This document shows, piece after piece, positions 11,138 to 36,179 of a stretch of DNA of 64,000 nucleotides. The translations under genes and the position numbers were made by a program. Origin of the DNA: an uncultured Chthonomonadaceae bacterium (GTDB taxonomy: Bacteria > Armatimonadota > Chthonomonadetes > Chthonomonadales > Chthonomonadaceae). Under the pieces are notes generated by a model. That model saw only the letters and a list, made by a program, of their open reading frames with translations, was not told where the DNA came from and made no database searches. The stretch covers positions 352,001-416,000 of the forward strand of contig CAWFQB010000006.1 of the NCBI GenBank assembly GCA_963817895.1. The letters are read 5' to 3'. The stretch's first letter is position 1; each line of letters opens with the position of its first letter.

Positions 11138-11462
11138 ACGCTACCGAACCGTGATCAAAGAGTTGCTTGAAGAAGTGGGAGGTTATGTACCCTCCACAGA
11201 CAGCGTTCGCACGGAACTTCTGTTTGACGATGAGCGCGGACATTACCAACTCTGCGTTGTCGGACGGGAAGTGAACAGACGCGTTTATAATATCATGATG
11301 CACTTTGACCTCATAATAGATGGCAAGATATGGGTTCAGGAAAACGCGACGGATATTGATCTCGAACACTACTTTTTTCAGGCGGGTGTTCTTTTTGAGC
11401 ATATCATGCCGGGAATGGTCCCACCTGAGCAGCGGCAATACTCTGACTTCGCCATTGCCTGA
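11124..11462 (+). CDS. XisI family protein
   Basis: MD..ERYR..I..LL, LFDDERGHYQL, HFDLIIDGKIWVQENATD, PPEQRQYSDFAIA. Confidence 0.9.
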   Translation: MDQTERYRTVIKELLEEVGGYVPSTDSVRTELLFDDERGHYQLCVVGREVNRRVYNIMMHFDLIIDGKIWVQENATDIDLEHYFFQAGVLFEHIMPGMVPPEQRQYSDFAIA

Positions 11463-11520
11463 CCGGATGTAATCGTCTGTGCGTCTTCGTTTCAGAGGCG
11501 CACAGAAAGACTTCTTCACT

Positions 11521-13741
11521 ATGCAAACCAACAAAAACTCTGTAGCGTTCGCTTTACTTCTTGCGGGAATGGCTGTTTCCTGTCTGTGTCAGGCGCAGTT
11601 GCCGCGTATCAACACCTTTTTTCCGATTGGCGGGAAGGCGGGGGAAACGGTTGATGTCGAGATACGCGGGTCGAGTTTGACGGGCGCGGACAAGCTGATT
11701 GTGCAGGGCGCGGGCGTGACCGGGACTATCAATCCGGGTGGCGTGAAAGCGGATGACACGTTCAAGCCGATCTTTCAAAGCAAATGCGCCTCATGCCATG
11801 AATTGCGTTCGCCGTCCAACCGCAGCATGACGCCCGCGCAGTGGGCCGCAACCGTTGATCGCATGGTGAAAGTGCGTCAGGCCCCGCTTTCCGCCGATGA
11901 AACGACAAAAGTGACGCAGTATCTAACGGCTTTGGCGCGGGCGGGTAAAATTACGGCGCAGATCAAAATCGCGCCCGATACTCTGCCCGGATTGTGCGAA
12001 CTTCGGGTTGCCACGCCCAAAGGGGTTTCCACAGTCGGCCTGTTTGAAGTGGGACGGCTGCCGGAACTGCTGGCGGTCAACAACACGATGCAGCAGCCAC
12101 TCGCGGTGACTCTGCCCTGCGTGGTCAACGGCAACATGGCGGCGAACGGCGAACGGCACTATCTCAAATTCGCGGCACAAAAGGGTAAGCGTTATGTTTT
12201 CAACCTGAAGGCGTACCGCTACAACGAACTGTCGCAGGAGTTTTTCAATCCCAATCTGCGCCTGTACGACGCGCAGGGCAAACAGCTTGTGGAAAATCAC
12301 GGCTATTACGATCTCGACCCGCTGATTGATTGGACCTGCCCGGAAAACGGCGATTACACTCTGGAAGCGCGCGATCTATTGGGTAAAGGCAATCCGGGCA
12401 GCGTGTACCGGCTGGCAATGGGCAATGTGCCGTATGATACAGCGATTAATCCGCCCGCTGCAACCGTAAACGCGCATATCAACGCAAACGTAATCGGCAG
12501 GAATATCGAAGGCGCGAAGACCGTTTTCGCAATGGATACGCCGCCCCGCGCAGGCATTATCACGGTGAGCAGCCCGCTTGGGCCGGCCCCTATGTATGTG
12601 TCCGCGTACCCGGTGGTTCGCGCCGACAGCAAGCCGAGCGCGAATACCACGCTGCCCGCCGCGTTCACCGGACGACTGACCAATGACGGCGACGCGCAGC
12701 AGTTTTATGTGCAGGGGAAAGGCCGCTTCGAGTTTAGCGTGTATTCCACCCGACTCGGCTCTCCCTCTCGCGTCCGTGTGACCCTGCTGAATGAGAAAAA
12801 AGGCGTGGTTGCGAACATGGGCGGCGTGGGGCGCAACGACGGGCTGAGACGTTTGGAAGTGGATGGCCGAACTCGTGGCCGATCTGCAAGCCGACAAAGT
12901 GTACACGCTCAAAGTGGAAGCGCCCAAAGAGAAGATGCAAGACCCGGAGGATGACAGTTCGGGAACCAGTTATGTGTATTGCGTGGAAGCCAAACCGTCC
13001 GCCGCCGTTTTGGAGTGCGTTATGCGTCCGGCAAGCGTAACCCTTCGCCCCGGCATGTCCACGCCCGTTGAAGTGACGCTTGCGCGGCGCGAGGGAACGA
13101 CCGGCGACATTACCGTGACGGCGACAAACCTGCCTCCCGGCGTCACCGCGTCCCCCGCCATTATTCAGCCGGACCGTCAGCGCGCGTATGTGATTTTGAC
13201 AGCAGACGCGGGCGCGATGCCTGCCGAGCAGCCGATTGAACTGACGGCAAGCGGGCAGGGGCCGAACGGCGAAGTGACAACCCGCGCCGTGCCGCAGGAA
13301 GAGTACCGAATTCAGAACAATCCGCGCTATCTCACGCGCTCCGAGTGTCTCGTCGTCGTGCGCGGGCAGCCGGAATTCAGCGTCACGATTGAGGATAACG
13401 GCCCGATCAAAGCGCATCCGCGTAAAAGCGTGGACGTGAAAGTGAAGATACAGCGCAAGGGCAATTTCAAGGGCAATGTGACAATTCAGATCGAGAACCT
13501 GCCCTCCGGCTGGGTTGCCAATCAGGAAACCGCAGGTCCGAACCAGACGGAAGTAATCATGCGGGTACGCCCGGACGGCAACAATCCCCTTCCGTTTCTA
13601 CAGCGTGATCCGAAGTGGACGACGATTAACGCGCTTATTATTGCCACTGTGGACGAGTATTCTTTTGTTATGGCGACCCGCCCTGTACAAAAGTCGGAAA
13701 CGGCGGAAGCGGACTTGAAGAAAGAACAACAGCAGAACTGA
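11521..13741 (+). CDS. Exported PPC-domain (pre-peptidase C-terminal repeat) protein with inserted c-type heme motif; frameshift near 12850
   Basis: PRINTFFPIGGKAGETVDVEIRG start, CASCH, LPCVVNG, DPLIDW...GDYTLEARD...YRL, NLPPGVTA; two overlapping ORFs. Confidence 0.8.
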
Positions 13742-13912
13742 ACAGTTGATAGTTGATGGGAATACAGTTTTTCGCAGCCAGCCGGAACTTTCGACTGGCT
13801 GTTTTTAGTTGTATCTGGAAATCATAGAGGAGTCGGAAACGCGGATAGCGAACTGTCACAACAATGAATGTACGAGACGCGTTGCGCGTGTTTGCGCGTG
13901 AAGGAGGGCGTT

Positions 13913-14701
13913 GTGAAGCAAAATCTAGGAAGGATTGGCGTGGTTATCGCGTTGTCTTGTGGGTTGGCAACCGCGCATGGGTTGGGAAAGCAGGAGGCGC
14001 AGGTTCCGGTGGGCGAGGGGACTCTGATATTGCCCCCTGCCGTCCATGATGTCGCCGTGCTGTTTTCCGGCAAGCCCGAAGAGATTGCTGCCAACTGGAT
14101 ACAGGACAAACAGCCCGGACACTGGAAGGTGGAAGACGGGGCAATGGTCGCGAGTGGCAGCACTCTGAGTACCAAAGCGACATTTACGGATTTCCAACTG
14201 CACATTGAGTTCAAAGTGCCGAACAAGCCGAACGCGAAGGGGCAGGCGAAGGGCAACAGCGGCGTGTTTTTGCAGGGACGCTACGAGGTGCAGGTGCTGG
14301 ACTCGTATGGCATTGCCGATCCCGGCACGGGCAATTGCGGCGCGATTTATACCATCGCTTCGCCCCTCGTCAACGCCTGCAAGCCGCCCGAAACATGGCA
14401 GACGTATGACATTACGTTTCGCGCCCCCCGCTTCGATACGGCAACCCATGACATGAAAGAACCGGCCCGCGCTACCGTGCTGCTGAACGGCATTACGGTG
14501 CAGAACGCGACCGAAATCACGCGCAAAACACATCGAGAAGCCGCGAAAAAGGGCGCGAACGGCGAACTGATACCACCCAAACCCGACACGGAAGACCTGA
14601 GTACGCCCGGTCCCATCTCCTTGCAGTACCATCAAAATGCCGTCGCGTACCGCAATATCTGGATTCGCCCCCTCAAAGACAAAGGCGCAACGCACTATTG
14701 A
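13913..14701 (+). CDS. DUF1080 (3-keto-disaccharide hydrolase-like) exported protein
   Basis: FTDFQLHIEF, GNSGVFLQGRYEVQVLDS, WQTYDITF, GPISLQYH...YRNIWI; GTG after aaggagg. Confidence 0.92.
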   Translation: MKQNLGRIGVVIALSCGLATAHGLGKQEAQVPVGEGTLILPPAVHDVAVLFSGKPEEIAANWIQDKQPGHWKVEDGAMVASGSTLSTKATFTDFQLHIEFKVPNKPNAKGQAKGNSGVFLQGRYEVQVLDSYGIADPGTGNCGAIYTIASPLVNACKPPETWQTYDITFRAPRFDTATHDMKEPARATVLLNGITVQNATEITRKTHREAAKKGANGELIPPKPDTEDLSTPGPISLQYHQNAVAYRNIWIRPLKDKGATHY

Positions 14702-14901
14702 TACTTTAATGACCGATGTGCAGGAACAAGCCGTCACTATTGCCGTTCGCGCAATTAAATCTGTATGAGCCTTGTAATTGCCAACGGGATTTGCTATAAT
14801 TGCCGCAGAATGGTATGGCGCAATCCTCCCCTGCGCCCCGCCGAATGTTCTCCTTTCGGACGCCTCCCCGTCGTCTGCTTTCTGTTTTGGAGGTCTGACT
14901 C

Positions 14902-16482
14902 ATGGTTCTCAAACGCCTTTCACTTCTGACGCCGTTCGCGCTTGCTTCTCTGTCGTTATGGGGATGCGGCGGCGGCTCATCCTCATCCACCGGCGCGAGC
15001 GGCACATCCCTGACACGCGCCAATACACAACTCAATCAAATCACGTCAGGACAGCAGCCGACCAACGACACGACGCTGAATTCTACCCTTGCTCTGTTTA
15101 CGTCCGCCCTGAAACAAGACCCCACTAATCCCGGCGCGCTGTTCGGGCAGGCGGTGTGTCAAACCGGGATCACTGCCGGAACCTTGACGGATCGACCTAC
15201 CATTCAGGTGGGAGTCGTTGTACCGACGCCCGTCAGCGCTGATGCAAACGGCACGGCGGATTCGACCGGGCAATCGCTGCCGCCCGCGCCGCCGAACGGG
15301 GCTTCCGGTGCGCGGCCTGTACCACCCTCCTCACAGCTTGGCCTGCTGTGGCATCTGCAAGATGGCGTCAGCAATCCCTACACGCTTTTGACTGCGCTTG
15401 CGCCTATAGCCAATCTGCGCTACGGCCTGATTCCCTTCAACGGCTACGCGGGGGATGATGTGGCAACCCGGCAGCAGGAGTTAGCGACACTGGATACGGT
15501 TGCGCAGAAGTTGCAGACGCTCGAAAGTAATCCCAATTTCGCCACTACACTGACCCTGCCCGCTTCGCAGGGCGGCGTTGTGAACATTGGCCTGCCGGAA
15601 GTGTATCTATTCGAGGCGTATGTACAATCGCTGCGCGTTCAACTCTCGCTTTCCCTCGCATACAATCGCGACCCCGGCGTGAACAATCCCCTTCCCGGCC
15701 CGCCTCTGGCAGCAAACAGCGCGCAAAATGTGATTACCGTTGCAGGCGCCGGCGCAACCGGAACGATTGGAAGCCTTCCCTATGGGCCGCAACCGATTGG
15801 AAGTTCCTTTGCCGGCTTGGACAAAAACGGCGATGGCAAAATATCCCCGGATGAGTATCTGCCGGCAAGCCCCTATCTTACTCTGCGAGATGCGAGTTTG
15901 CTCCAGAAAGCGCAACAGGCGCTGCAAGCGGTTGCAGATCGGGAAACAAAGGGGATTCAGGGCGTGTTTGCCCGTCCCGCCGATGGCAGCGGCAGATTCC
16001 TGATTCCCAACAACAGCAACATTCATACCACCCTGGACAACGCGCTGAACAATGTCGTGCCACTGGTGCAGCAGGCGGCAAATGGCCCCGTAACGCTCTC
16101 CGTTCCCGATTATGCGCCGCCGGTGGGCGGCTATCTTCTCGGCAACGCTGGTGTCATTCCCGGCAATAATCCCGGTTCGCCTGGCAAAAGCGCCGCCAAA
16201 ACCGGCAGCGCGAAGACGCGGCGCGTGTTTCTGCTTGGCAGTGTGAGCATCGGTTCCGATGGCACGCTCGGTACGCCTGTTGCGCCTCCGCAGCCTACAT
16301 TCGTGAGCGTGACCTTCAATCTGGCCGCGTGGTTCGCCAATCCGCCTGCCGATTTGAAGGCGTTCGCCCCAACGTATACGCTCGACAGCAACAAAGTGCC
16401 CGATTTAAGCAAGACCACGTATCCTGACCCCACTTTTGGCGGGCTGTTTCCCAACGGTCTGCCCGCCACCCTGATGCTGTAA
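14902..16482 (+). CDS. Lipoprotein with EF-hand-like Ca-binding loop
   Basis: Lipobox LWGC followed by GGG; DKNGDGKISPDE loop. Confidence 0.8.
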   Translation: MVLKRLSLLTPFALASLSLWGCGGGSSSSTGASGTSLTRANTQLNQITSGQQPTNDTTLNSTLALFTSALKQDPTNPGALFGQAVCQTGITAGTLTDRPTIQVGVVVPTPVSADANGTADSTGQSLPPAPPNGASGARPVPPSSQLGLLWHLQDGVSNPYTLLTALAPIANLRYGLIPFNGYAGDDVATRQQELATLDTVAQKLQTLESNPNFATTLTLPASQGGVVNIGLPEVYLFEAYVQSLRVQLSLSLAYNRDPGVNNPLPGPPLAANSAQNVITVAGAGATGTIGSLPYGPQPIGSSFAGLDKNGDGKISPDEYLPASPYLTLRDASLLQKAQQALQAVADRETKGIQGVFARPADGSGRFLIPNNSNIHTTLDNALNNVVPLVQQAANGPVTLSVPDYAPPVGGYLLGNAGVIPGNNPGSPGKSAAKTGSAKTRRVFLLGSVSIGSDGTLGTPVAPPQPTFVSVTFNLAAWFANPPADLKAFAPTYTLDSNKVPDLSKTTYPDPTFGGLFPNGLPATLML

Positions 16483-19779: not shown

Positions 19780-19837
19780 GGTGTTGGCGCTGTTTATTCC
19801 TTAACGGAACCCCCTGTCCTCGCTTCAAAACATCACA

Positions 19838-20027
19838 GTAGGGGCGCTGCTTGCTGCGCCCTCTATCACTCTTCCGTTGCGCTTTGCTGCGCCCTCTATC
19901 ACTCTTCCGTTGCGGTTTGCTGCACCGTGTGACATTCTACTGTTGCTGCTTGCTGCGCCCTCTATCACTCTTCCGTTGCGGCTTGTTACGCTCGTTGGCA
20001 GCAGGGCGCAGCAAGCAGCGCCCCTAC
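19838..20027. repeat. GTAG-type REP doublet with internal triplicated unit
   Basis: gtaggggcgctgcttgctgcgccct ... agggcgcagcaagcagcgcccctac; ctgcgccctctatcactcttccgttgcg three times. Confidence 0.85.
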
Positions 20028-20032
20028 TCTGA

Positions 20033-20692
20033 TTACGTGACTTCGACGATGCCAAGCGGTATCATCGTTGTCATTTGCCCGGTGTTGCTGTTGACGAAGC
20101 GGCAGGCGCAGGCGTACCAGCCGGGGGCAGTGGGCAGGGCATGGGTGAGGAGAGTGGACGTGAACGCGACGAACGCGGCGGATTTATAAAAAGGGACGGG
20201 CGAACGGCGGGGCGTTTTTAGTTTCTGGACGAGCAGTTCTACGCGGGTATCAGGCGAATTGGCCGCGCTTGCCGTAAAGAGGAGTTGGCCGGTTTCGCCG
20301 GTTAAAATGAGGGTTACGAGATCGCCAAAGTAGGGGGATATGGGCGGCGCGGGGGGTACGGTTCCGGTCGGATTGATCTGTAAGAACTTGGACGCGAGGC
20401 CGACAAAGACGTTCTGCCCGGTGGGATGATAGGGCGCGTTGTCCGGGTCCCCGGAGCGCGTGAGCGTACTGGCATAGGCGTTCCACTGCATCGCCTGTTC
20501 GCGTGTCAGCGTGTTGTATGAAGCCATAACCTGCGCCATGCGGTTCTGAATCGTCTGCTGAATGGGCTGCGTGGGGCGTTTGTAGGTGGGACGCCCGCGC
20601 AGCACAAGGCCGTTCCGCCCTTCAACCGCAACCTCATTGCCAATTTTACCCCGTACCTGCGTTAGTAAGGGGCCGGGTGTCGCTTTTGCCAT
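20033..20692 (-). CDS. Basic hypothetical protein, DUF6266-like N-terminus (paralog of 29347-30009)
   Basis: RGKIGNEV...G.VLR...PT..QQ.IQNR; shares VFVGLA.KFLQINPTGTVP and RFVN..TGQ with the paralog; ggag RBS. Confidence 0.8.
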   Translation of the reverse strand: MAKATPGPLLTQVRGKIGNEVAVEGRNGLVLRGRPTYKRPTQPIQQTIQNRMAQVMASYNTLTREQAMQWNAYASTLTRSGDPDNAPYHPTGQNVFVGLASKFLQINPTGTVPPAPPISPYFGDLVTLILTGETGQLLFTASAANSPDTRVELLVQKLKTPRRSPVPFYKSAAFVAFTSTLLTHALPTAPGWYACACRFVNSNTGQMTTMIPLGIVEVT

Positions 20693-21603: not shown

Positions 21604-21821
21604 AAGAGCAAACATTCCTTTCATCAGGAGAATCGCACGGGAAGGGAAACGCTCTTGCGGCGCGTTCGCCACAAGGGACGCATCGGCGCAGCCGCAGGCG
21701 TTTGGGGCGGGCGAAGGCTTCTACGTATTACTATTGCAAGAATCGTGCCAAATCATGCGAAAGGGAGGCGAACGGAGCAAAAACGCGCAAAAGCCTGTCT
21801 TTTTGCGAGGTGGGAGCCTGG

Positions 21822-22013
21822 ACCCTCATCCGTCGGGGGCCACGCTTCTCCCTTTCAGGGCGAAGGCAAGTATGGTAGTTGAGTGCGTAGATAAGGAGGT
21901 ACGGAGTGAACATAGAAAAAGCGCGCGTCATTCCAGGCTTTCATCAACGCGCCCGATGAGCAATTTAGCCTTCGCCCTTGCAGGGAGAAGGTGGCCGGAG
22001 GCCGGATGAGGGT
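21822..22013. repeat. Palindromic REP-pair element, copy 1 (left arm diverged)
   Basis: accctcatccg...ttctccc..gggcgaaggc arm and inverted gccttcgcccttgcagggagaaggtggccggaggccggatgagggt. Confidence 0.8.
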
Positions 22014-22018
22014 AGAGC

Positions 22019-22714
22019 CTACCGTTTTGCCCGCAGCAGCGTCTCAATGTCGGAACGGCGGTACCATTGCGCAAGTATGAGGGGAGTCCTGTCATACTGA
22101 TTACGCGCATACGGGTCGGCTCCATACGCCAAGAGCAGACGTACAATTTCTCTATCGGAGCCAATCCTGGCGGCGTAATGCAAGGCTGTACTTCCTTCTC
22201 TATCCGTCGGCGTTACGCTTGCGCCATGCTCCAGAAGAAAGCGCGTGGTATGCGGATGCTTGTTGAGGATGGCATAGAACAGAGCCGTATATTTGTCTTC
22301 GCTTATTGCTTCTATATCCGCGCCATGGGCAATCATCGCCTGCACGAGCGGCACATCGTCCGGGGACAGAGAAAGCGTTAGGTGCTGTGTTAGTTCCTGG
22401 AAACTCACACCTCCGCAGGCAAGTTGAAGCGCGGTAGGACTGTCATTAGCAACAGGTCGCGAGCGGCGCAGGAGTTGGCGGAACAGTTGCGGGAGAGTGG
22501 GAGGCGGCGACGCTTCCCGACGAGTGTTCGGGTCGGCTCCAGCATTGACGAGTGCGAGCGCGGCTTTGCTGTCGTGGTGGGCAAGGGCGGCAATCAGTTG
22601 CCGATTAAGCGCGTACTGCCGTTTCGCCTGCCACACCCAAACGCCGCTCGCGCCGACAACCGCCAGAACGAGTATCAACAACAGCAGTAACGAACGTCGC
22701 GCTTTCTTCATCAT
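22019..22714 (-). CDS. N-terminally membrane-anchored ankyrin repeat protein (ANK1)
   Basis: Basic residues + TM helix; TALFYA, GSTALHYAA, LLAYGADP, RTPL repeats. Confidence 0.92.
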   Translation of the reverse strand: MMKKARRSLLLLLILVLAVVGASGVWVWQAKRQYALNRQLIAALAHHDSKAALALVNAGADPNTRREASPPPTLPQLFRQLLRRSRPVANDSPTALQLACGGVSFQELTQHLTLSLSPDDVPLVQAMIAHGADIEAISEDKYTALFYAILNKHPHTTRFLLEHGASVTPTDREGSTALHYAARIGSDREIVRLLLAYGADPYARNQYDRTPLILAQWYRRSDIETLLRAKR

Positions 22715-22767
22715 CGGTTCCTCCACACGTATTGTACCCGCAGTTTCATGTGGAAACCGGGGATTGG

Positions 22768-22959
22768 ACCCTCATCCGGCCTCCGGCCACCTTCTCCCTG
22801 CAAGGGAGAAGGCGAATGTGGCAGTCTGGCGCGAGGAATAGGGGATTGCTTTGTGCGCAGCACCGCCGTACTTACAGCCCAAGTCTCCGTCCAACCGGGC
22901 ATTGAACAATTTCGCCTTCGCCCTTGCAGGGAGAAGGTGGCCGGAGGCCGGATGAGGGT
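22768..22959. repeat. 192-bp palindromic REP-pair element, copy 2
   Basis: Inverted arms accctcatccggcctccggccaccttctccctgcaaggg; differs from 23802-23993 at 4 positions by eye. Confidence 0.92.
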
Positions 22960-22964
22960 AGAGT

Positions 22965-23756
22965 CTACCGTTTCCCCCGCAGCAGGCGCACAAGGTCGGA
23001 ACGCTGTTCCTTTTGCGCAAGTGTGAGAGGGCTTTCACCATCCTTGTTACGCGCATTGGGGTCGGCTCCATGCGCCAGAAGCATACCGATAATACGAGGA
23101 TCGGCGTCATCAGCTATCGCGCAATACAAGGCTGTGTTTCCTGGCCCATCCGCCATATCAACATTTGCGCCATGCTCCAGAAGGCAATGCATGGTGTCCA
23201 CATCACAGCCCGCAACAGCAAACATCAGCGGCGTTTCGCCGTATGGTTCAGGCGCATTGACGTTCGCGCCAGACGCCAGCAGTAATTGCGCGATATGTGG
23301 ATGCTTCCACCGAACGGCATAGAACAGTGCCGTTCGTCCGTCCTCATCTGTTGCCTGAACATCCCCGCCATGAACCAGCATCGCCTGCACAAATGTCGCA
23401 TCGTCCGGGGAATGGTAATCCGTTATGTCCTCTGGCGTCCACTCCGTAGGTACGCCTCCGCAGGCGATGTGAAACGCAGTGGTACTGTCATTGACAACGG
23501 GCGGCGAGCGGCGCAGGAGTTGGCACAACAGTTGCGGGAGGGTGGGAGGAGGCGAGGCTTCCTGACGAGTGTTCGGGTCGGCTCCGGCATTGACGAGAGC
23601 TAGCGCGGCCTTGTTGTCGTGGCGGACAAGGGCATCAATGAACTGTCGGTTGCGGGTGTATTGTCGTTTCGCCTGCCATATGCACAACCCTCCCGCGCCG
23701 ACAACGGCCAGCACGATTACCAACAACAGCAGTAACGAACGTCGCGCTTTCTTCAT
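22965..23756 (-). CDS. N-terminally membrane-anchored ankyrin repeat protein (ANK2)
   Basis: Paralog of ANK1 with one more ankyrin repeat; GRTALFYA, GETPLMFA, GNTALYCA, GESPL. Confidence 0.92.
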   Translation of the reverse strand: MKKARRSLLLLLVIVLAVVGAGGLCIWQAKRQYTRNRQFIDALVRHDNKAALALVNAGADPNTRQEASPPPTLPQLLCQLLRRSPPVVNDSTTAFHIACGGVPTEWTPEDITDYHSPDDATFVQAMLVHGGDVQATDEDGRTALFYAVRWKHPHIAQLLLASGANVNAPEPYGETPLMFAVAGCDVDTMHCLLEHGANVDMADGPGNTALYCAIADDADPRIIGMLLAHGADPNARNKDGESPLTLAQKEQRSDLVRLLRGKR

Positions 23757-23801
23757 TGTCGGTTCCTCTCCACGTATTGTACCTGCGAACCAGGAGTTTC
23801 T

Positions 23802-23993
23802 ACCCTCATCCGGCCTCCGGCCACCTTCTCCCTGCAAGGGAGAAGGCGAATGTGGCAGTCTGGCGCGAGGAATAGGGGATTGCTTTGTGCGCAGCACTGC
23901 GGTATTTACCGCCCAAGTCTCCGTCCAACCGGGCATTGAACAATTTCGCCTTCGCCCTTGCAGGGAGAAGGTGGCCGGAGGCCGGATGAGGGT
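23802..23993. repeat. 192-bp palindromic REP-pair element, copy 3
   Basis: Near-identical direct copy of 22768-22959. Confidence 0.92.
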
Positions 23994-24075
23994 CCAATCT
24001 TTCGTCCGCACCCTCCCGCAACCGTCACAATGCACACAAGGGAAAAAGAGAACAGAACGGGTGTGCCATAAGAAC

Positions 24076-27000
24076 TCACCCGGACGCCGCAGCAGAAGCC
24101 GAAGCCTCCACATACGCGCAAACCGTCCACAACGCGTCCCATATTGCATCGGCCACAGAATGATACGGTGTAAATCCAGGCATAGTCTCGTTAATAGAAG
24201 CTCCCATTGCCTGAAACAAAAATTGTTGAACGCTAATGAAGTTGACCGCATCACACGAGGTAGAACGTCGTGTGAAAAGTTTCGTGAGTGATTCGGCGGC
24301 AGAAGCGCGCACATTTTTGTCTTCATCCTTGCAGGCGTGGAGCAGGGCGCTGACCACTTCCCCGGAACTCTGTCCCGTCTGTCCCAGGGCTTGTACGGCA
24401 GAAGCGCGCACATTTTTGTCTTCATCCTTGCAGGCGTGGAGCAGGGCGCTGACCACTTCCCCGGAACTCTGTCCCAACCGCCCCAGGGCTTGTACGGCAT
24501 ACCGGCGCACATTTTTGTCTTCATCCTTGCAGGCGTGGAGCAGGGCGCTGACCACTTCCCCGGAACTCTGTCCCAACCGCCCCAGGGCTTGTACGGCAGA
24601 CCAGCGCACATTGTTGTCTTCATCGTTGAGGGCGTGGAGCAGGGCGCTGACCACTTCCCCGGAACTCTGTCCCGTCTGTCCCAGGGCTTCTACGGCAGAC
24701 CAGCGCACATTGTTGTCTTCATCGTTGAGGGCGTGGAGCAGGGCGCTGACCACTTCCCCGGAACTCTGTCCCGTCTGTCCCAGGGCTTCTACGGCAGAAG
24801 CGCGCACATTTTTGTCTTCATCCTTGCAGGCGTGGAGCAGGGCGCTGACCACTTCCCCGGAACTCTGTCCCGTCTGTCCCAGGGCTTGTACGGCATACCG
24901 GCGCACATTGTTGTCTTCATCCTTGCAGGCGTGGAGCAGGGCGCTGACCACTTCCCCGGAACTCTGTCCCAACCGCCCCAGGGCTTGTACGGCAGAAGCG
25001 CGCACATTTTTGTCTTCATCCTTGCAGGCGTGGAGCAGGGCGCTGACCACTTCCCCGGAACTCTGTCCCAACCGCCCCAGGGCTTCTACGGCATACCGGC
25101 GCACATTGTTGTCTTCATCGTTGAGGGCGTGGAGCAGGGCGCTGACCACTTCCCCGGAACTCTGTCCCGTCTGTCCCAGGGCTTCTACGGCATACCGGCG
25201 CACATTGTTGTCTTCATCGTTGAGGGCGTGGAGCAGCAGTCGGGTTGTTTCCCTGCCTGCTTCCGTGTCGCCCAAATAGGCCATACGCGCCAGGAGGCGT
25301 TCGCGTAATGGCCGGTATTTGCCTGCGCCAGTCCTATCCATATACAGGGACACCAGTTTCCCCGCCACATCACGAATCAAACTCGTTTCGGCTCCGGCGC
25401 AGTCGCCCAGACAGTGCGCGGCGAACAGCAAATCGCGGTGCAGCACATTCTCGTAAGCGCCTGGCTGAAACCCTTCCTCCTGCGCTTCTTCCCCTTGCGC
25501 AAGAATGGCCGAACGTATCAGGTCACTGGCATATTCCGGGCGGCTCTTGCTTTCATAGCCGATGGCAAGCAGTATTGGCTCCTCCCAACGGGGCTGATGC
25601 CGATGCTTATAAATGGTTTTTGCAGTGGTCTTATAGCGCCGCAGCAGTTCGCGCCCGACATAATATTCCTCAAACGTCAGGTGCATGAAGCCAAAGTAGC
25701 CCGGCGCGCGTTCCACAAACAGGCCTGTATGCTCCCGAACGCGCCGCAAAAAGTCGTCAACCGCTTTCGTTACCTCTTCGCCGTCCGGTTCCTTGCCCCG
25801 CTGCTTTGCCAGCAGGTCGGCGAGATGCTCCTGCACGTCGCGCTTGCTCGCCATTCCCGTCGGCTTTGTCTCGTGCAGCCACAGGGCGAGGGGGCCGAGC
25901 AAGCGCAATGCCTCGTCTTCTTCCACGCACTGTACGCCCGGAATCCCCCGGTGCAGCTGCCAATCCCGCAGCAGGGTTTGCGTGGCGAGTTCGTACAACT
26001 CCACGCGACGACGAGGCATGTGCGCGCCGTTGCGCTTGATAAGACACAGAATCGTCAGCAGGAGGGGATTGGTTGCCAGTCGGCGAACACCAAGATTGTC
26101 TTGCAGTGCGCGTTCCACGTCGGCCACTTCCACCGTCGCCCTATCCTGTACATCGCTTTCGGGAGCATCGGGCGTCAGATGGCGTTCGTAGGCGAGGCAC
26201 CAGCGTTGCAGGAAGCGATGGATTTGCTCCGTCTCCATATCCTCTAGCGTGAACTCGGCAAACTCACTGCCAAGCGGCGCGATGCGATACCCGGCAATGC
26301 GGCTTGTCACCAGAAAGCGGTTGCCCGGATTGGCGGATACAAATTCGTCAATGCGGGTGGCAATCTGCGCCCGGTCGCCGGGAGCAATGACTTCATCCAG
26401 GCCGTCCAGAAGCACAAATGCCCGTTTTGCGCGCAGGGCATCATCGAACAGCCTTTGCAGCTTCTCCGGCGCCATATTCAGTTCATCAAATGCGAGGGGC
26501 AGAAACCGGCGCAAACTCGTGGCGGGATGTTCCCTGAGATATTCGGCGTAGCGGGAAATGCGAACGAAAATCGGCAGGCAGGCTTCGCCATACTCCTCGT
26601 TTTCCGCATCCCGCACGATTGTTTCATTCTGCTGCACCGCCCGCGCGAAATGCAGTGCCAGAAAGCGCATCAGCGTAGTTTTGCCCGCGCCCGGATCGCC
26701 CAATACCACCATACGCGCATTGGCCTTCACCGCTACGGGCAGTTCGACGCTTTCCGTCCGCTTCTCCTGCGCTTTCAGTTGAAACCGTTCTAACTCCCGC
26801 TGCTCCCATTCGTCAAACAATTCCGTCTCATAATCGCGCCCCGGCTTGTTAAAGCGGTCGCGCGTCCACGTTCGTTCCACCTGCCGTTCCGCTTTGAGCG
26901 ACACGTATACTTCGTCCAGTTTCAGCATCGCCGAGCGCGTCGTCTGCATCACGCCGCGCGGGTCCATGTACTCATTGCGCCGAAGGATGTAGTCGAGATA

Positions 27001-27723
27001 GAACGCGCTGTCAAGGGTCAAAAACCGGTGAAGGTCGCCTGAGAAGGAAACGACCGGGTTACTCTCCTCTTCGTCGCAGTTGCGGCCAAGCGCGGCAAGC
27101 GCGATATTACGCTGCTGTCGGAACTCGCTGACGTGGTAGGCAGGCAGATTGGGACGGGTCAACATTTCGTCATAGCGGCGCACATCACGGCGGTAATCTT
27201 CAGCCTCTTCCAGCGTCAGCCTGCCAATGGCCGTTGTCGCAATTTCTGCATTACAATCCAATGGCAGTTCAATGGTCGCATCGCGCCACGCGGCGAAGTC
27301 GGGAGCCTGTTGCAGTAACTCTTGAAAAATCTGACTTGAAACCCAGAGGATTAACGCTGCCTGTGAATCGCGGACATCCTCACGATGGTTGTTGAGCAGT
27401 TCCAGTGCGGTCTGATAGTCGTCCGTGGGGCGATCCGCGAGGGCTTCCAGACCATACGCGCAGACGCATACCGGCAACTCGCGGCGTGGGATACTGCGGC
27501 AAAATCGGGGCAGGCTGCGCTGTTCCGTCTGCGCGTAATCGAATTCGCGCAGATACCGCTGCCCGCTGAGACGTTCCCCCAACTCGGCGATAGCTTCCCG
27601 GCGCAGCATCAGGTTTTCAACCAGGACAAAAACAATATGGGAACGCTCTTCATCGCGCAGCGCGTTCTCAATCTGCTGCATGGCCTCGGCTATCTGTGGA
27701 TTTGTTGTAAAAACAGGGTTCAT
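24076..27723 (-). CDS. NACHT (STAND) NTPase with C-terminal HEAT repeats and an N-terminal APDF..WR domain
   Basis: LGDPGAGKTT Walker A, LLDGLDEV Walker B, LVTSR, NPLLL, FMHLTFEEYY, PRWEEPI; 31-aa HEAT/PBS-lyase-like repeats. Confidence 0.93.
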   Translation of the reverse strand: MNPVFTTNPQIAEAMQQIENALRDEERSHIVFVLVENLMLRREAIAELGERLSGQRYLREFDYAQTEQRSLPRFCRSIPRRELPVCVCAYGLEALADRPTDDYQTALELLNNHREDVRDSQAALILWVSSQIFQELLQQAPDFAAWRDATIELPLDCNAEIATTAIGRLTLEEAEDYRRDVRRYDEMLTRPNLPAYHVSEFRQQRNIALAALGRNCDEEESNPVVSFSGDLHRFLTLDSAFYLDYILRRNEYMDPRGVMQTTRSAMLKLDEVYVSLKAERQVERTWTRDRFNKPGRDYETELFDEWEQRELERFQLKAQEKRTESVELPVAVKANARMVVLGDPGAGKTTLMRFLALHFARAVQQNETIVRDAENEEYGEACLPIFVRISRYAEYLREHPATSLRRFLPLAFDELNMAPEKLQRLFDDALRAKRAFVLLDGLDEVIAPGDRAQIATRIDEFVSANPGNRFLVTSRIAGYRIAPLGSEFAEFTLEDMETEQIHRFLQRWCLAYERHLTPDAPESDVQDRATVEVADVERALQDNLGVRRLATNPLLLTILCLIKRNGAHMPRRRVELYELATQTLLRDWQLHRGIPGVQCVEEDEALRLLGPLALWLHETKPTGMASKRDVQEHLADLLAKQRGKEPDGEEVTKAVDDFLRRVREHTGLFVERAPGYFGFMHLTFEEYYVGRELLRRYKTTAKTIYKHRHQPRWEEPILLAIGYESKSRPEYASDLIRSAILAQGEEAQEEGFQPGAYENVLHRDLLFAAHCLGDCAGAETSLIRDVAGKLVSLYMDRTGAGKYRPLRERLLARMAYLGDTEAGRETTRLLLHALNDEDNNVRRYAVEALGQTGQSSGEVVSALLHALNDEDNNVRRYAVEALGRLGQSSGEVVSALLHACKDEDKNVRASAVQALGRLGQSSGEVVSALLHACKDEDNNVRRYAVQALGQTGQSSGEVVSALLHACKDEDKNVRASAVEALGQTGQSSGEVVSALLHALNDEDNNVRWSAVEALGQTGQSSGEVVSALLHALNDEDNNVRWSAVQALGRLGQSSGEVVSALLHACKDEDKNVRRYAVQALGRLGQSSGEVVSALLHACKDEDKNVRASAVQALGQTGQSSGEVVSALLHACKDEDKNVRASAAESLTKLFTRRSTSCDAVNFISVQQFLFQAMGASINETMPGFTPYHSVADAIWDALWTVCAYVEASASAAASG
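24297..25237. repeat. 93-bp tandem repeat array (9 full copies plus a partial one) encoding HEAT repeats
   Basis: Constant block gtggagcagggcgctgaccacttccccggaactctgtccc recurs every 93 bp. Confidence 0.97.
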
Positions 27724-27735
27724 CGTCTTGCCATT

Positions 27736-29046
27736 CTATACCAACTCATCCCATATAAGCGGATGCGCGTCGAACCAGGTGCGGGAATTCTGATAGGCGA
27801 CAATCAGCAAAGCGTGAAGCAGGTCGGCGCACTCCTTGTTTTGCGATGGCTTTTTGGCCTCATGTACCCTTTTCAATTCCGCCGTATTCTCGATGGTCAG
27901 GCGGCGCGTGTATTCGGCAAGCAGTTTGTCTACCGCTGTCTGCGCCGCCTGCATGGTAATGCTATCCAAGCCCTTCTGTTCGGCGTAGCGGCAGGCGTCT
28001 TCCACGAGACGAATCAGCCAGCGTAGCACCCCTCCGCTTTTGAAGATCAACAAGTCGAGGGTATCTTTCTCGAACAACTTCTCCTCAGTCAATCCGACAG
28101 TCAGCAGCCGCTTGGTCACAACTTCGCGCAGTTCCGCATACCCCTTCTCATAGCGCGTCTCCTGATTAGTGCGATGATAAAGGCGAATGTTGGGCAGAAA
28201 GTAACATTCCGCGCTGGTTTCCACTTCGCCGAAAGCCAGCGATGTGTAAACCAACATGGGAACTGTGTAGATGATACGGCACAGAGGAGATTGAAGCGCG
28301 GTGCTGTTGATAAACAGTTCATTGGCCTGTTCCTGCCGCTGTATCTTGTCCAGGTCGTCTACGATAACCAGCAAAGGCTTCCCGATGACATCTTCCACTT
28401 CGGCAATAATCAGGTTGATGCGTCTGAGAATATTCGGAATTTGCGGCTCGACCGGGCGGGTACGCAGAATTTCTTCCGTCACGCCGGAGGAAATTTTGAA
28501 TATTTTACCCATCCCATCCGCCAGCATTTTACCTACGCTAGACCCTGCCATTCCGGCTGTCACTATTAACAACTTCTGCGCCAACTCTACGAGATTGAGA
28601 GATTGATCCCTTACTGTCTCTTTGTCGTTATAAGTGATGGCATAAACGGCTTCGCCCAGGTCTTGCAGCAGTTCCTTGTTGATTGCGTAACCTTCCTGTA
28701 CAGCTGCCTGAAAAATTGTCGTACCGAGAAGTAACAGCAGGTCAATGAGATTGGCTTTGGGACTATCGAGATTGTGCGTGATGTTCACGTAAACGACAAA
28801 ATAGTCCTCATTGAAGTGGTCGCGCAGCTTAAACAGCAGAGAACTTTTGCCGCTTCCACGATGCCCAGTAAAGAAAGCGACAGGCGGCTTTGTGGGCTGT
28901 TCTTCCTTCCGCAATACCATAACCATATCGTCAAATGGGCTATGTTCTCGTGGGCAGTACAGAGTTCGGCTACGCTCTCCTGCAAGAACCTCCGAAGGGT
29001 CGAACGCTCGGTAAAGCTGTAACCAGAACTGTGTAGGGTGAGGCAT
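27736..29046 (-). CDS. P-loop ATPase (AAA+/STAND-like) directly upstream of the NACHT gene
   Basis: GHRGSGKS Walker A, LVIVDDLDK Walker B, IIYTVP, SGGVLR, C-terminal HPL; 12 bp gap to the NACHT ATG. Confidence 0.88.
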   Translation of the reverse strand: MPHPTQFWLQLYRAFDPSEVLAGERSRTLYCPREHSPFDDMVMVLRKEEQPTKPPVAFFTGHRGSGKSSLLFKLRDHFNEDYFVVYVNITHNLDSPKANLIDLLLLLGTTIFQAAVQEGYAINKELLQDLGEAVYAITYNDKETVRDQSLNLVELAQKLLIVTAGMAGSSVGKMLADGMGKIFKISSGVTEEILRTRPVEPQIPNILRRINLIIAEVEDVIGKPLLVIVDDLDKIQRQEQANELFINSTALQSPLCRIIYTVPMLVYTSLAFGEVETSAECYFLPNIRLYHRTNQETRYEKGYAELREVVTKRLLTVGLTEEKLFEKDTLDLLIFKSGGVLRWLIRLVEDACRYAEQKGLDSITMQAAQTAVDKLLAEYTRRLTIENTAELKRVHEAKKPSQNKECADLLHALLIVAYQNSRTWFDAHPLIWDELV

Positions 29047-29346
29047 GGCAAGGTTCCTTTGCAACAGAGGATTTGATAATAGTCCTGAACACATTATACT
29101 AAAATGGTTGAGTCCTGTCAATGAGAGCAAGCGCTGTTCCAAAATCAAACACATGGCTCTATTTCTATTATGTTGTAAACGAACAGAGTACGAAACTTCA
29201 ATGTCGTGGTTAAGCGCGAAATTACCTACACTGCCTGCTTCTTCCGAACATTTGTAGCGTCACCCTCAAGAGAAAACGATCATTAGCCACAATCTAATGC
29301 AATTCGCTCAACAGGGAGCAATACAGTAATTCTGAGGAGGAAAATC

Positions 29347-30009
29347 GTGGCGAAAGTGGTGTTTGCTGCCGACATTCAGGCGATGCGGGGCAAGATGGGC
29401 AACAGTGTTTTCAGTCGGGCGCGGAACGGCAACACCGTGCGTACCCGCGTCAAGGGCAAGAACCCGCGCACGTCTGCGCAGACCGGCGTTCGGTCGAATT
29501 TCAGCAAGGCCGCCACGTCGTATAAAAACATGACGCCGGCACAGGTGAGCGCGTGGCAGGTGTACGCGGCGGGGCAGATCAAGCACGATAGCCTTTCCGG
29601 GCTGAGTTACGTGCCGTCCGGCAATACGGTCTTTGTAGGACTGGCAGCCAAGTTCCTGCAAATCAACCCGACCGGAACCGTACCCGTCACGCCGCCCACA
29701 GCCGCCTTTTCCGGGGACAGCATCACGGTCACGGCAGCGGGAAGCAGCGGCAAAGTGATCTTTACGGGCAGCGGCAACAACAGCGCGAACATCAAAACGG
29801 AATTACTGCTCCAGCCACTGAAAAGCCAGAACCGAGCCGCCGCCAATAATGGCTACCGCAGCAAAGGCTTTATCGCGTTTGCCGGTACCAGCCTGGCACA
29901 GAATGTCACCGTACCCGCCGGCTTTTACGTGCCTGCGTATCGGTTTGTGAATACGCTGACCGGACAGGAATCGCTACTCGTCACCCTGCCTGTCGCGCAG
30001 GCTACCTGA
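29347..30009 (+). CDS. Basic hypothetical protein, DUF6266-like N-terminus (paralog of 20033-20692)
   Basis: MRGKMGNSVFSRARNG..VR...KNPRTSAQ..VR..F; GTG after gaggagg. Confidence 0.85.
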   Translation: MAKVVFAADIQAMRGKMGNSVFSRARNGNTVRTRVKGKNPRTSAQTGVRSNFSKAATSYKNMTPAQVSAWQVYAAGQIKHDSLSGLSYVPSGNTVFVGLAAKFLQINPTGTVPVTPPTAAFSGDSITVTAAGSSGKVIFTGSGNNSANIKTELLLQPLKSQNRAAANNGYRSKGFIAFAGTSLAQNVTVPAGFYVPAYRFVNTLTGQESLLVTLPVAQAT

Positions 30010-32007: not shown

Positions 32008-32694
32008 CTACCGTTTTCCTCGCAGCAGCGCCACAATGTCAGGGCGATGTGCCGCCTGCGCGGCGGTGAGGGGCGTTTGTCCCACCGTGTCAAGATGAGT
32101 CGGGTCGGCTCCATGCGCCAGCAGAAGACGCAGAACAGGGATTTTGTTTCCACTGTATACCGCATAGTACAGAGGGGTATAGCCCTTTTTATCTTCAAGG
32201 GTAACGTTCGCGCCCTGTTCCACAAGCAGCCGCGTCAGCTCCTCATCATTGCGCAGAATGGCAAACATGAGCAGGGTATCGCCTTCAAAATCCTGCTGGT
32301 CAATGTTCGCGCCATGCGCCAGCATCGCGCAAATCAGGGGCGTATCTTCCAGCGGTTGGACGTTTGCGGTCCAACTGACCGGGGATGCGTAACATGCGGT
32401 TGCATCCGTCAGCAAAAACGCCGTGTAACTATACTCTTCAGGCGCAGGCGAATGGCGCAACAGTTGACCCATAAGCGATTTCAGGGTCGGGGCAGGCGTC
32501 GGGTTGTAGCGCGTGTCGGGGTCGGCGCCCGCATTGACGAGGCCAAGCGCCTGTCCGATGTCCTTGCGGTCAAGGGCGGCGATCAGTTGGCGGTTGACCG
32601 CGTACTGCCGCTGCGCCTTCCACACCCACGCCCCGCCCGCGCCGCCAACCGCAAGAACCAGTGTCGGCAGCAATAACCAACGTCTTCGTTTCAT
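32008..32694 (-). CDS. N-terminally membrane-anchored ankyrin repeat protein (ANK3, same family as ANK1/2)
   Basis: RQY..NRQLIAAL, LVNAGADP.TR, ends LLRGKR; same upstream GGTACAATA..GGAGGAACCG leader. Confidence 0.9.
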   Translation of the reverse strand: MKRRRWLLLPTLVLAVGGAGGAWVWKAQRQYAVNRQLIAALDRKDIGQALGLVNAGADPDTRYNPTPAPTLKSLMGQLLRHSPAPEEYSYTAFLLTDATACYASPVSWTANVQPLEDTPLICAMLAHGANIDQQDFEGDTLLMFAILRNDEELTRLLVEQGANVTLEDKKGYTPLYYAVYSGNKIPVLRLLLAHGADPTHLDTVGQTPLTAAQAAHRPDIVALLRGKR

Positions 32695-33987: not shown

Positions 33988-34929
33988 ATGCTATTGTACC
34001 GCTCATGCAGGTTTGCTGTGGTTGGCGCTGTTTGTTGTCTGATCGCGTTGAGCGGTTGGCAACCAACAGCGGCGTATGCGGACGATTTCAGTCCTAATGC
34101 TTCCATGCTCAAAGAGGCGCGAGAGAGTAAAGGCAGCCCCTTGTATAAAGCCGCGCTGACAGGCAACGTAGCGAAAGTAAAAAGATTGATTGCTGCCAGG
34201 GCCAAAGTCAACGCAGGCGATGTCAGACACCGAACACCCTTACACGCCGCCGTATTAGGTGGCAATATTGAAGTGGTGAAATTGCTGCTAACGGCGGGGA
34301 GTAAAGTAAACGCTGTCAACGATACCCGTAACGGCGGCTGTCTAATTTTCGACGATGGCATGACCGGGACGCCCTTGCACTGGGCGGCGCAAACGGGAAA
34401 CGTGGCAATCGCCCGTTTATTGATTCAGCATGGCGCGAATGTCAACTCACCGGATGCGCGCTGGAAAGAAACGCCGCTTCATCTTGTGGGCTGGCAGGGC
34501 GGGGCGCGAATGGCGGAACTGCTGATCCAACACGGCGCGCGCTTAGATCCTGTAGGCGGTTTTACGGACGCGACGCCTTTGTATTGCGCCTGCGAATTCG
34601 ATAAAGTGGAAACAGCGGGCGTTCTGCTGGCGCATGGGGCGGACGTGAACGCCGCTGCCGAGTATGGAGATACGCCTCTGCATACGGCGGTTCGAACGGG
34701 AAATGTGGCGCTGGTCAAACTGCTGCTGACAAAGAGGGTGAATCTGAACGCCGAAAGCCACATCGGGACAATGAGGTTGATGCCTTCGGGCTTCAGCAAT
34801 GAAATCGGCGGAACGCCCCTGCACATCGCCAACCAGATGCAAAAGTGGGGAATCGTGAGTCTCCTGCAAGCGAAAGGCGCAACAGACACCGAGCGCGACG
34901 AACGCGGTTTCTCGCATCTACGTCCGTAA
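33988..34929 (+). CDS. Secreted ankyrin repeat protein (unrelated to the ANK1-3 family)
   Basis: Signal peptide; repeated TPLH.A / LL..GA.VN motifs. Confidence 0.93.
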   Translation: MLLYRSCRFAVVGAVCCLIALSGWQPTAAYADDFSPNASMLKEARESKGSPLYKAALTGNVAKVKRLIAARAKVNAGDVRHRTPLHAAVLGGNIEVVKLLLTAGSKVNAVNDTRNGGCLIFDDGMTGTPLHWAAQTGNVAIARLLIQHGANVNSPDARWKETPLHLVGWQGGARMAELLIQHGARLDPVGGFTDATPLYCACEFDKVETAGVLLAHGADVNAAAEYGDTPLHTAVRTGNVALVKLLLTKRVNLNAESHIGTMRLMPSGFSNEIGGTPLHIANQMQKWGIVSLLQAKGATDTERDERGFSHLRP

Positions 34930-34991: not shown

Positions 34992-35387
34992 TCAGGCCAC
35001 CGATTGCACCGACTGTCCATAGGCTTGCAGAGTTTCGCGTTGCTGTTGGCGCAGTCGGGCCGCCAGAAACAGGGCATCTACTTTGTATTGTCTCGGAATG
35101 GTTTGTTCTCTCCCCAACGCCTCGAACAGCTTCAAAGCATGACGCAGGCTGCCCGATTTCATATAGCATACCGCCGCGCTGAATCGGTGCAGTGCTGCCA
35201 AATCTTTTTCTTTGTTTCGGGCGTAATATCGGGCAATTCGCTCTTCCATCGGCGCGGCCTGCGCGTAGCGTTCCACCGCTTCATCCGGGCTGTCGGTCGC
35301 GACGAGCATTTGCGCTTCCAACAGCAAAGTTGATTTCTGCCCCTGCACTTCACGAATCATTTCTTCCGTGTCCGATGTTTTTCTCAT
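34992..35387 (-). CDS. Helical (TPR-like) hypothetical protein
   Basis: Ala-rich amphipathic helices; ATGA overlap with the upstream gene. Confidence 0.7.
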   Translation of the reverse strand: MRKTSDTEEMIREVQGQKSTLLLEAQMLVATDSPDEAVERYAQAAPMEERIARYYARNKEKDLAALHRFSAAVCYMKSGSLRHALKLFEALGREQTIPRQYKVDALFLAARLRQQQRETLQAYGQSVQSVA

Positions 35388-35956
35388 AGTTGTTTGTCTT
35401 CCTCATGTACATGGTACGAGAGAAGTATCTCACGGCGGGTGAACCCAACTACAGCGACATAGCCGCCCCATCGCATCGGGTTGTCAAGCAATTGCCGTGT
35501 TTTTTGCAAATGCCGGTCCCGCAATATCTGTTTGTCTTCCGTTTGGCTGCCACTGATCTCGATTCCGCAAAGAACGCCGTTTTCGGAAAGAATGTAATCG
35601 AAGCGGTCATTCCGATCTGCCACGTTCACCAAAGCCGCAGAAGTAAAAATCGGCAGCAAGGTAAATGCCAGCGCATAGGCCGCTGCTTCTGTAACATACT
35701 CTCGCTGTGCCGCCAACGGTGTCCGCGGTATTATGGCATCTGTCCATGTCCATTTGACTGCCACAAAACGCAATCCCTGACTGCCAATGTCCTGCAAAGT
35801 CACTCGGTAATTCAGCGTGTTTCCAATCCGCGCGGGATGCTCCATTAATCGCGCTATGACAAACGGCGCGTAGATTTCAGTATTCACCGGATGATATTGA
35901 AAACTTTCCTCAAGCGCAATCTCTATCACCGGAGAACTCTCTGCGGAATCACTCAT
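35384..35956 (-). CDS. Hypothetical protein, possible PD-(D/E)xK-like nuclease
   Basis: TEAAAY...RFDY.L......IEISG...K..QL pattern. Confidence 0.6.
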   Translation of the reverse strand: MSDSAESSPVIEIALEESFQYHPVNTEIYAPFVIARLMEHPARIGNTLNYRVTLQDIGSQGLRFVAVKWTWTDAIIPRTPLAAQREYVTEAAAYALAFTLLPIFTSAALVNVADRNDRFDYILSENGVLCGIEISGSQTEDKQILRDRHLQKTRQLLDNPMRWGGYVAVVGFTRREILLSYHVHEEDKQL

Positions 35957-36179
35957 GGCAACAAACCTTTTAAGGAAAGCAACTGGCCCAGCTTGCAACC
36001 GCTTCGCATAAGATTCACTTGGATTTCATGTCTTTTGGTTACGTCAGGCGAAAAAACATGCAATTTGATGCTATTCCGATGAAGTAAAGTTTTTCGGTAC
36101 TGCTCGGAAAGTTGATCCGCCAGTTATTCGATGGCTTCCAGTGTCGGTGTCATAAGTCCTGCTGTGTCGAAATCTCAGA

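Follow-up and report, generated by a model that had tools for sequence, protein, structure and literature searches.

A NACHT-HEAT protein with an N-terminal dead AAA+ domain and its partner ATPase: a candidate two-gene NLR-type conflict module in an uncultured Chthonomonadaceae bacterium

Many bacterial NLR-like proteins carry no recognisable effector, and how such a receptor might pass on its signal, and to which neighbouring protein, is the question raised by a locus of an uncultured Chthonomonadaceae bacterium (assembly GCA_963817895.1, ~81% complete, in 14 contigs). Within the 64,000-nt window, which is the whole stretch of DNA analysed (contig CAWFQB010000006.1, positions 352,001 to 416,000), four consecutive minus-strand genes encode an ATPase, a NACHT-HEAT protein and two ankyrin-repeat proteins (ANK2 and ANK1), all found as open reading frames (ORFs) where a preliminary description of this DNA had placed them (Table 1). 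That description had proposed that the four act together. We find instead that the ATPase and the NACHT-HEAT protein almost certainly constitute a two-gene unit to which the ankyrins do not belong, and that the NACHT-HEAT protein begins with a dead AAA+ domain, here termed iN. The locus suggests a pseudo-ATPase adaptor that hands the signal of the receptor to a partner ATPase.

Linkage of the two genes was assessed by searching the ATPase family in 61 related genomes, supplemented by collection scans that yielded 28 and 79 more loci, and by a profile of the first 155 residues of the partner (the iN profile). The next ORF carried iN for 92 of the 97 full-length ATPase ORFs having a downstream ORF, the five misses comprising two tandem ATPases, two iN domains in another frame and one cut short; these 92 ORFs reduce to 84 distinct partners, of which 29 are cut by contig ends. 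In the reverse direction, 34 of 37 iN sites in 15 genomes had an ATPase match directly upstream (one of them a fragment), and the remaining sites were two at contig starts and one with a 21-residue ATPase remnant; the site lists were compared by eye, and the test is partly circular, the profiles having been built from such pairs and some of these from the same genomes, although orphans would still have been detectable. Pairwise identities of the ATPases and of their iN partners are correlated (Spearman 0.56; best of 1000 permutations 0.21), and at the locus itself the second gene starts 12 nt past the stop of the first. The ATPase family is patchily distributed (16 of the 61 genomes). Five pairs occur in the source genome, the other four being of the TPR-only type, as are most related loci, and the syntenic site of a same-genus genome holds neither the pair nor an ankyrin gene, a short NACHT-like fragment lying 9 kb further on. 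Pair linkage thus supports the view that the ATPase and NACHT-HEAT genes form a tightly coupled, unnamed module of conflict type. The remnant site mentioned above (L158, G012:C673) is an iN-NACHT gene preceded by an ATPase gene reduced to ~21 C-terminal residues.

The earlier account of the second gene was right about its NACHT and HEAT parts and missed the domain in front of them. The NACHT core matches PF05729 at 42-47 bits (cut-off 26.7) and the C-terminal sensor matches HEAT_2 at E 1e-110 over ~10 repeats, so that by the features tested (NACHT motifs and repeat sensor) this is a bacterial NACHT (NLR-like) protein. Its N-terminal slot holds a folded pseudo-AAA+ domain of putative adaptor role, modelled as an AAA+ core with a predicted local distance difference test score (pLDDT) of 93. 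The best structural match of iN is Cdc6/Orc1 (Z 11.8, root-mean-square deviation (rmsd) 3.9, 152 residues aligned), on a par with TnsC and other AAA+ domains. Walker A is absent throughout 60 aligned rows and iN lacks Walker B as well, while Arg114 is present in 60 of 60 and is likewise invariant in the 150 best iN representatives, a set selected by the profile itself. No Pfam family was found for iN in a scan of the 60 rows, and atlas look-ups place it in unnamed clusters only; the family is nonetheless large, its profile matching 7,297 clusters (at 50% identity) at E 0.001 and 4,142 at 1e-10. Direct profile comparison between iN and the ATPase is weak (probability 4.9%, E 0.008, Walker B region only), and the proposed kinship of the two therefore rests on fold searches.

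Because sister NACHT proteins bear TIR-type or phosphoesterase N-termini at the same position, iN occupies the effector slot of a NACHT receptor. Among the best 120 of 2,607 NACHT-core relatives, the N-terminus was iN in 8 (this protein counted), PF13271 in 16, TIR_2 in 4, PF00149 in 2 and PF01048 in 1, the rest being mostly unannotated; we take PF13271, PF00149 and PF01048 to be DUF4062, metallophosphoesterase and nucleoside phosphorylase, respectively. A NACHT-HEAT paralogue in the source genome (G000:C2:726940-731387), whose core is 41% identical and which is frameshifted in the assembly and flanked on both sides by REP-like doublets of the kind described below, has an N-terminus that we presume, from its motifs, to be phosphoesterase-like. 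Elsewhere (G054; L032:838-4551 and 11324-15295), the DNA 5 kb upstream of an orthologous pair carries another NACHT-HEAT gene, whose N-terminal domain is a different one.

The partner ATPase has all the parts of an ORC/CDC6-type protein, namely an AAA+ core, a helical lid and a winged-helix-like C-terminus. Its best structural matches are Cdc6, TnsC and Orc1 (Z 15.5-16.9), with Cdc6 at Z 16.9 (rmsd 3.4, 251 aligned) and archaeal Orc1/Cdc6 at Z 15.5 (rmsd 4.7, 271 aligned, model residues 7-436), and a Foldseek match reached E 1e-7. Walker A is intact, Walker B is acidic, and the sensor residues Thr261 and Arg342 are conserved, yet no arginine finger of its own is conserved, Arg reaching at most 37% (21 of 57 members) in any column from sensor 1 to strand 5. 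A predicted complex of the ATPase with iN scored 0.66 against 0.00 for the best control, passing a mark reached by 116 of 157 solved pairs and by 2 of 215 mismatched ones; contact agreement across runs was at least 81% and partner pLDDT at least 86. Modelled contacts include ATPase residues 63-64, 231, 234 and 342 with iN residues 111-116 and 137-150, and the conserved iN motifs (111-116, 140-147) are turned towards the P-loop, Walker B and Arg342 of the ATPase. Direct binding of iN to the ATPase, modelled on its nucleotide-binding face, is in our view very probable. Since the model is nucleotide-free, we only infer that iN may play the part of an arginine finger.

A NACHT core is present in 17 of the 84 partners (14 of the 55 complete ones), and these concentrate in one lineage. 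In a quick tree of 56 ATPases, with two further NACHT loci outside the tree sample, a 16-row clade (SH-aLRT support 99) comprises 15 NACHT-partnered ATPases and one whose partner is cut by a contig end, and a single NACHT-partnered ATPase falls outside it. Because these receptors already contain an intact NACHT, their ATPase cannot simply stand in for a missing switch. The sensors of the clade are HEAT, WD40, FGS or TPR, with TIR added in two members, and the fusions seen across the 18 long partners scanned involve NACHT, TIR, HEAT, WD40, FGS, TPR, CHAT and nSTAND1. A longer, Gly-rich hydrophobic ATPase insert of at least 65 residues occurs in 12 of 16 NACHT-partnered rows vs 0 of 39 other ATPases, and is also found in 31 of 31 close ATPase homologues whose own partners were unseen; because kin rows are not independent, it may represent one single gain. 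KAP NTPases such as PifA likewise have a hydrophobic insert separating Walker A from Walker B. The KAP profile PF07693 scores 19.9 bits against the ATPase (cut-off 20) and matches 14 of its 57 relatives at E 1e-4, the match to PifA being weak (E 9e-5). The ATPase stays just under the family cut-off and has fold matches to ORC/CDC6 and TnsC, with an insert that falls short of true membrane helices in both length and hydrophobicity.

The sensor end of the receptor bears its own signature of change. Repeats of the HEAT array match one another at 93%, and its full units 2-9 contain 13 variable nucleotides in 5 blocks. Since all 8 units differ and 9 of the 10 block pairs show every allele combination, the intragenic repeat shuffling proposed for this gene is real in the one assembly at hand. 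Non-synonymous divergence exceeds synonymous divergence among the units (pN 0.085 > pS 0.042), and variable codons (8-9, 13, 17-18, 21, 24-26) occur in mosaic combinations. As codons 13, 17, 21 and 25 are spaced by four, the sequence predicts that the variable residues share one helix face, which in HEAT-repeat structures is the ligand face. Near-identical HEAT arrays recur in some relatives (L033, 89%; L034, 93%) and not in others. With its five recombining allele blocks, the array offers a compact natural case of combinatorial sensor diversification. Sequencing-run listings gave one low-share DNA run and no RNA run; a 129-nt contig with a swapped repeat allele from that DNA run had a depth below 3, could not be phased and was not used.

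Our best reading of these data, held tentatively and at a little under even confidence, is a two-gene, two-tier NLR-type conflict module whose output runs via the partner ATPase. The shuffled HEAT ridge would bind an invader protein, the NACHT switch would oligomerise and thereby cluster the iN domains, and clustered iN would recruit the ATPase and supply in trans the arginine that it lacks. The assembled ATPase would then be the output and arrest or kill the infected cell, whether by binding DNA as do ATPases of the ORC/TnsC fold, by sending its hydrophobic hairpin into the membrane, or by draining ATP. Taken separately, a conflict role of the pair is probable, and the balance tips slightly towards the ATPase being the output and not only a regulator. 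We consider unlikely the most specific version, in which iN completes the ATPase active site in trans, the ATPase executes through a Gly-rich hairpin gained in the NLR-partnered clade, and iN serves as a general sensor plug. If true, the module would add a novel route of NLR signalling, with iN as a socket that attaches any sensor to the ATPase. In the NACHT-bearing clade the question is directly testable, the two live switches being separately breakable and the one invariant arginine mutable.

Several observations weigh against this reading. Domain and defence library scans found no catalytic effector domain in either the ATPase or the NACHT-HEAT protein. Four of the 16 NACHT-partnered ATPases lack the long insert, and the hydrophobicity of its hairpin is no more than moderate (mean 1.43 over 17 residues). 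At the classical finger position, iN has a second arginine in only 35 of 60 rows, and the best-listed contact of Arg114 in the nucleotide-free model is residue 18 and not the P-loop; AAA+ heterodimers have moreover already been solved, so the pass of the complex may reflect likeness to them. A TIR domain sits between iN and NACHT in two relatives (L034, L035) and a CHAT domain on one TPR-type partner (L064), the ATPase being kept in each case. Finally, apart from Cmr genes at one locus and methyltransferases at two, a neighbour scan (103 ORFs at 13 loci) returned generic matches, with no consistent defence system.

That TIR- and CHAT-bearing partners retain an ATPase without a recognised catalytic effector part would also fit an ATPase that is a safety catch, chaperone or threshold switch and holds or resets the receptor via iN, with the output provided by the fused domain or by a protein encoded elsewhere. 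The same can be said of the 67 of 84 distinct partners that have no NACHT match (contig ends truncate 29 of the 84), the ATPase being the sole live switch in the TPR-only ones. We nevertheless find this explanation, the main rival of our reading, unlikely: no fused effector is seen at this locus or in most of the clade, iN itself sits in the effector position, and the neighbour scan revealed no third gene common to the clade.

The lack of a consistent defence neighbourhood and the presence of five pairs in one genome would also suit a signalling module for a non-immune cue such as stress, development or cell contact, as would the ATPase itself, which had no match in the defence library at E 1e-5, with 3 weak family matches among 57 members. 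Against this stand the patchy distribution, the absence of the pair from the syntenic site, the swapping of sensors and a repeat shuffling that changes amino acids, all of which are marks of conflict genes, as well as the protection against phage that bacterial NACHT proteins confer (10.1101/2022.07.19.500537). A non-immune role is on these grounds distinctly unlikely.

Some individual neighbourhoods deserve mention beside the preferred conflict module. At L031:15213-21304, an orthologous pair stands directly before matches to Cmr1 and Cmr6 (type III CRISPR). At two unrelated loci (L037:3835-14134 and L070:327-7474), three tandem thymidylate-kinase-like genes and one dCTP-deaminase-like gene lie directly upstream of the ATPase and an iN-NACHT-FGS gene, and could be a nucleotide-depletion arm of the module; at L037 there are in addition three paralogous ATPase genes and an iN gene standing alone.

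Compared with known systems, the pair is most like, and still distinct from, several that join NTPases to variable sensors. It has in common with bNACHT proteins (Kibby et al., 10.1101/2022.07.19.500537), which are anti-phage, the D[GAS]hDE NACHT core, the C-terminal HEAT sensor and a variable N-terminal slot, whereas its N-terminal dead AAA+ is tied to an obligatory upstream ATPase gene, none being listed for bNACHT in the part of that source available. The nearest published theme is the nSTAND2 operon (Kaur et al. 2021, PMC8195603), for which a hetero-oligomer has been proposed and which similarly places the gene of an active STAND-type NTPase before that of an inactive one fused to variable parts. 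Both nSTAND2 chains keep an arginine finger, however, which is not conserved in our ATPase, and the inactive nSTAND2 module includes a winged helix together with GT4 or HEPN effectors, whereas iN is a bare 155-residue core on a live NACHT. The nSTAND2 profile (PF20702) had no match in the genome, where controls were silent too, and none in 60 iN rows (E 0.05) or 57 ATPases (1e-4). Pairs of Orc/CDC6 proteins (Rakesh et al. 2024, PMC10853773) also combine two ORC/CDC6-like proteins, one of them degenerate, in a mobile operon with NACHT, pentapeptide or TIR fusions; there the active copy is fused, Walker A persists in the other copy and a KAP NTPase adds a third component, whereas here the dead copy, without Walker A, bears the fusion and PF24389 has no match at the locus. 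Some overlap with these pairs may exist.

Signalling from an NLR via a non-catalytic N-terminal module to a separate protein is known from EAD systems (PMC8195603) and from amyloid-motif systems (10.1101/2020.01.06.895854), in contrast to which the adaptor here is a pseudo-AAA+ and the receiver is an ATPase, and neither a protease or TIR nor a known pore protein. A parallel theme is the grafting of ParA on STAND N-termini (10.64898/2026.10.19.760177). The available parts of PMC13581612, PMC10907252 and 10.64898/2026.10.19.760177 do not describe the ATPase-iN-NACHT pair, and our literature searches returned no description of it, although supplements and CR-ATPase work outside their coverage may bear on its novelty. 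PADLOC and NCBIfam scans gave no full-length component match, just repeat-level or short P-loop matches, those to NCBIfam being far under the cut-off with the exception of one repeat-level domain model. Profiles for nSTAND_NTPase5 (PF25199) and ORC-CDC6-like (PF24389) were tried as family assignments and had no match at the locus, nor had nSTAND2 (PF20702), for which the controls were silent too.

Table 1 Features of the locus and their positions in the window.
Feature	Position	Strand	Description
ATPase	27736..29046	-	436 aa ORF, ORC/CDC6 fold (STAND superclade), stand-alone
Clade-specific insert, Gly-rich hydrophobic part, ATPase ~residues 155-183	28498..28584	-	between Walker A and B; low model confidence
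Sigma-70 consensus promoter	29093..29121	-	12/12 match, 47 nt ahead of ATPase start; candidate only, from consensus match
NACHT-HEAT NLR-like partner	24076..27723	-	1215 aa; order: dead AAA+, linker, NACHT, HEAT array
iN pseudo-ATPase domain, NACHT-HEAT residues 1-155	27259..27723	-	AAA+ alpha/beta core without Walker A/B; Arg114 invariant
NACHT NTPase core, residues 337-509	26197..26715	-	Walker A intact, D-G-h-D-E Walker B signature
HEAT array	24307..25236	-	99-nt unit, 9.4 copies
REP-like doublet a	23802..23999	.	between NACHT-HEAT stop and ANK2 leader
ANK2	22965..23756	-	263 aa; N-terminal membrane anchor and ankyrin repeats; own TACAAT leader
REP-like doublet b	22762..22959	.	98% identical to doublet a
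ANK1	22019..22714	-	231 aa; ANK2 paralogue
REP-like doublet c	21819..22013	.	more diverged than a/b, different spacer

Whether the two ankyrin genes belong with the pair was addressed by their position in relatives. None of the other four ATPase pairs of the source genome has an ankyrin gene within 29 kb, and a co-directional ankyrin gene follows 0 of the 39 complete related pairs whose downstream DNA extends for 2.3 kb or more, a count weakened by the many hosts from other phyla, which may lack the ankyrin family; fetched loci from within the order gave the same result. Of 16 ANK1-subfamily matches in a same-genus genome, one has an ATPase pair within 10 kb. An ankyrin profile run over all related loci matched at two distinct loci. 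In the first (L021, the closest orthologous pair), three membrane-ankyrin genes, just 29% identical in their N-terminal part, lie 1.3-6.6 kb upstream, on the opposite strand and separated from the pair by a xylose-isomerase-like gene; in the second (L024), one convergent ankyrin gene lies beyond a GH44 gene. The source genome contains 75 ankyrin ORFs, with 15% of its length within 10 kb of one, and an atlas look-up of ANK1 returned generic ankyrins only.

These data bear directly on a four-gene system in which the membrane ankyrins would work with the ATPase and NLR in phage or contact-dependent non-self recognition. Adjacency and shared direction at the locus speak for it, as do the upstream membrane ankyrins of L021, the over-representation of REP elements near both ankyrin and NACHT genes (see below), and a convergent pair of ANK1-subfamily genes beside another REP-flanked, frameshifted NACHT gene in a same-genus genome (G002; L151:7540-13064), which carries near-identical leucine-rich repeats. 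The L021 and L024 ankyrins are however in the wrong orientation and beyond other genes, the 39 pairs and the genome-wide abundance of ankyrins argue the other way, and a 198-bp hairpin and a separate leader intervene between the NLR and ANK2. We regard a four-gene system as highly improbable; joint action of the four genes is not borne out, and as far as linkage is concerned the outcome in relatives is the one that the preliminary description had itself named as telling against it.

The ankyrins look rather like independently transcribed members of a large family spread over the genome, situated in a REP-marked variable spot. ANK1, one repeat shorter, is 79% identical in amino acids to ANK2 over the first 95 residues and 44-54% thereafter, and the topology of the membrane anchor is ambiguous by charge. 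A common TACAAT element, 10-20 nt before the ribosome site and exact in 5 of 10 paralogue leaders, agrees with the promoter-like leader previously ascribed to them. A 552-aa ORF (22965-24623) in which ANK2 is prolonged into the HEAT array was rejected as a by-product of the repeats, the real start having a ribosome site and the conserved leader. Two more ankyrin genes lie 3-6 kb upstream of the ATPase, one (window 32008-32694) being a third ANK1-subfamily member that shares the TACAAT leader, the other (window 33988-34929) being unrelated and having a signal-peptide-like start.

Inverted-repeat doublets (a, b and c) bound the ankyrin genes, the middle one (b) folding at z = -12.2, and a 94-nt spacer is found only in a and b. 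The genome has 26 such REP doublets, with conserved arms and mostly unique spacers, of which 4 and 5 lie near ankyrin and NACHT genes, respectively (vs 1.2% and 0.4% of the genome), in two clusters each; we read this proximity as shared variable spots and not as a shared machine. REP copies a and b are 98% alike vs a pS of 0.33-0.46 between ANK1 and ANK2, and the REP copy is therefore much younger than the ankyrin duplication. Thus, of the REP-bounded gene duplication proposed earlier, the REP doublets around the ankyrins are real, whereas a duplication driven by them is unsupported and was set aside. A DUF559 nuclease gene between two REP doublets (L156:225-1040; G000:C1:437724-438539) is a candidate mobiliser of the 26 elements.

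Further features surround the locus. Two paralogous genes for basic 220-aa proteins flank the whole block in opposite orientation (window 20033-20692, minus strand; 29347-30009, plus strand), have no Pfam or PADLOC match and occur in several copies in same-genus genomes. A 33-nt repeat of ~4 copies lies inside a 31-nt inverted repeat at window 19832-20033. Two overlapping small genes (204 and 131 aa; window 34992-35998, minus strand) had no match in library scans, and by eye the first is nuclease-like in look and the second TPR-like.

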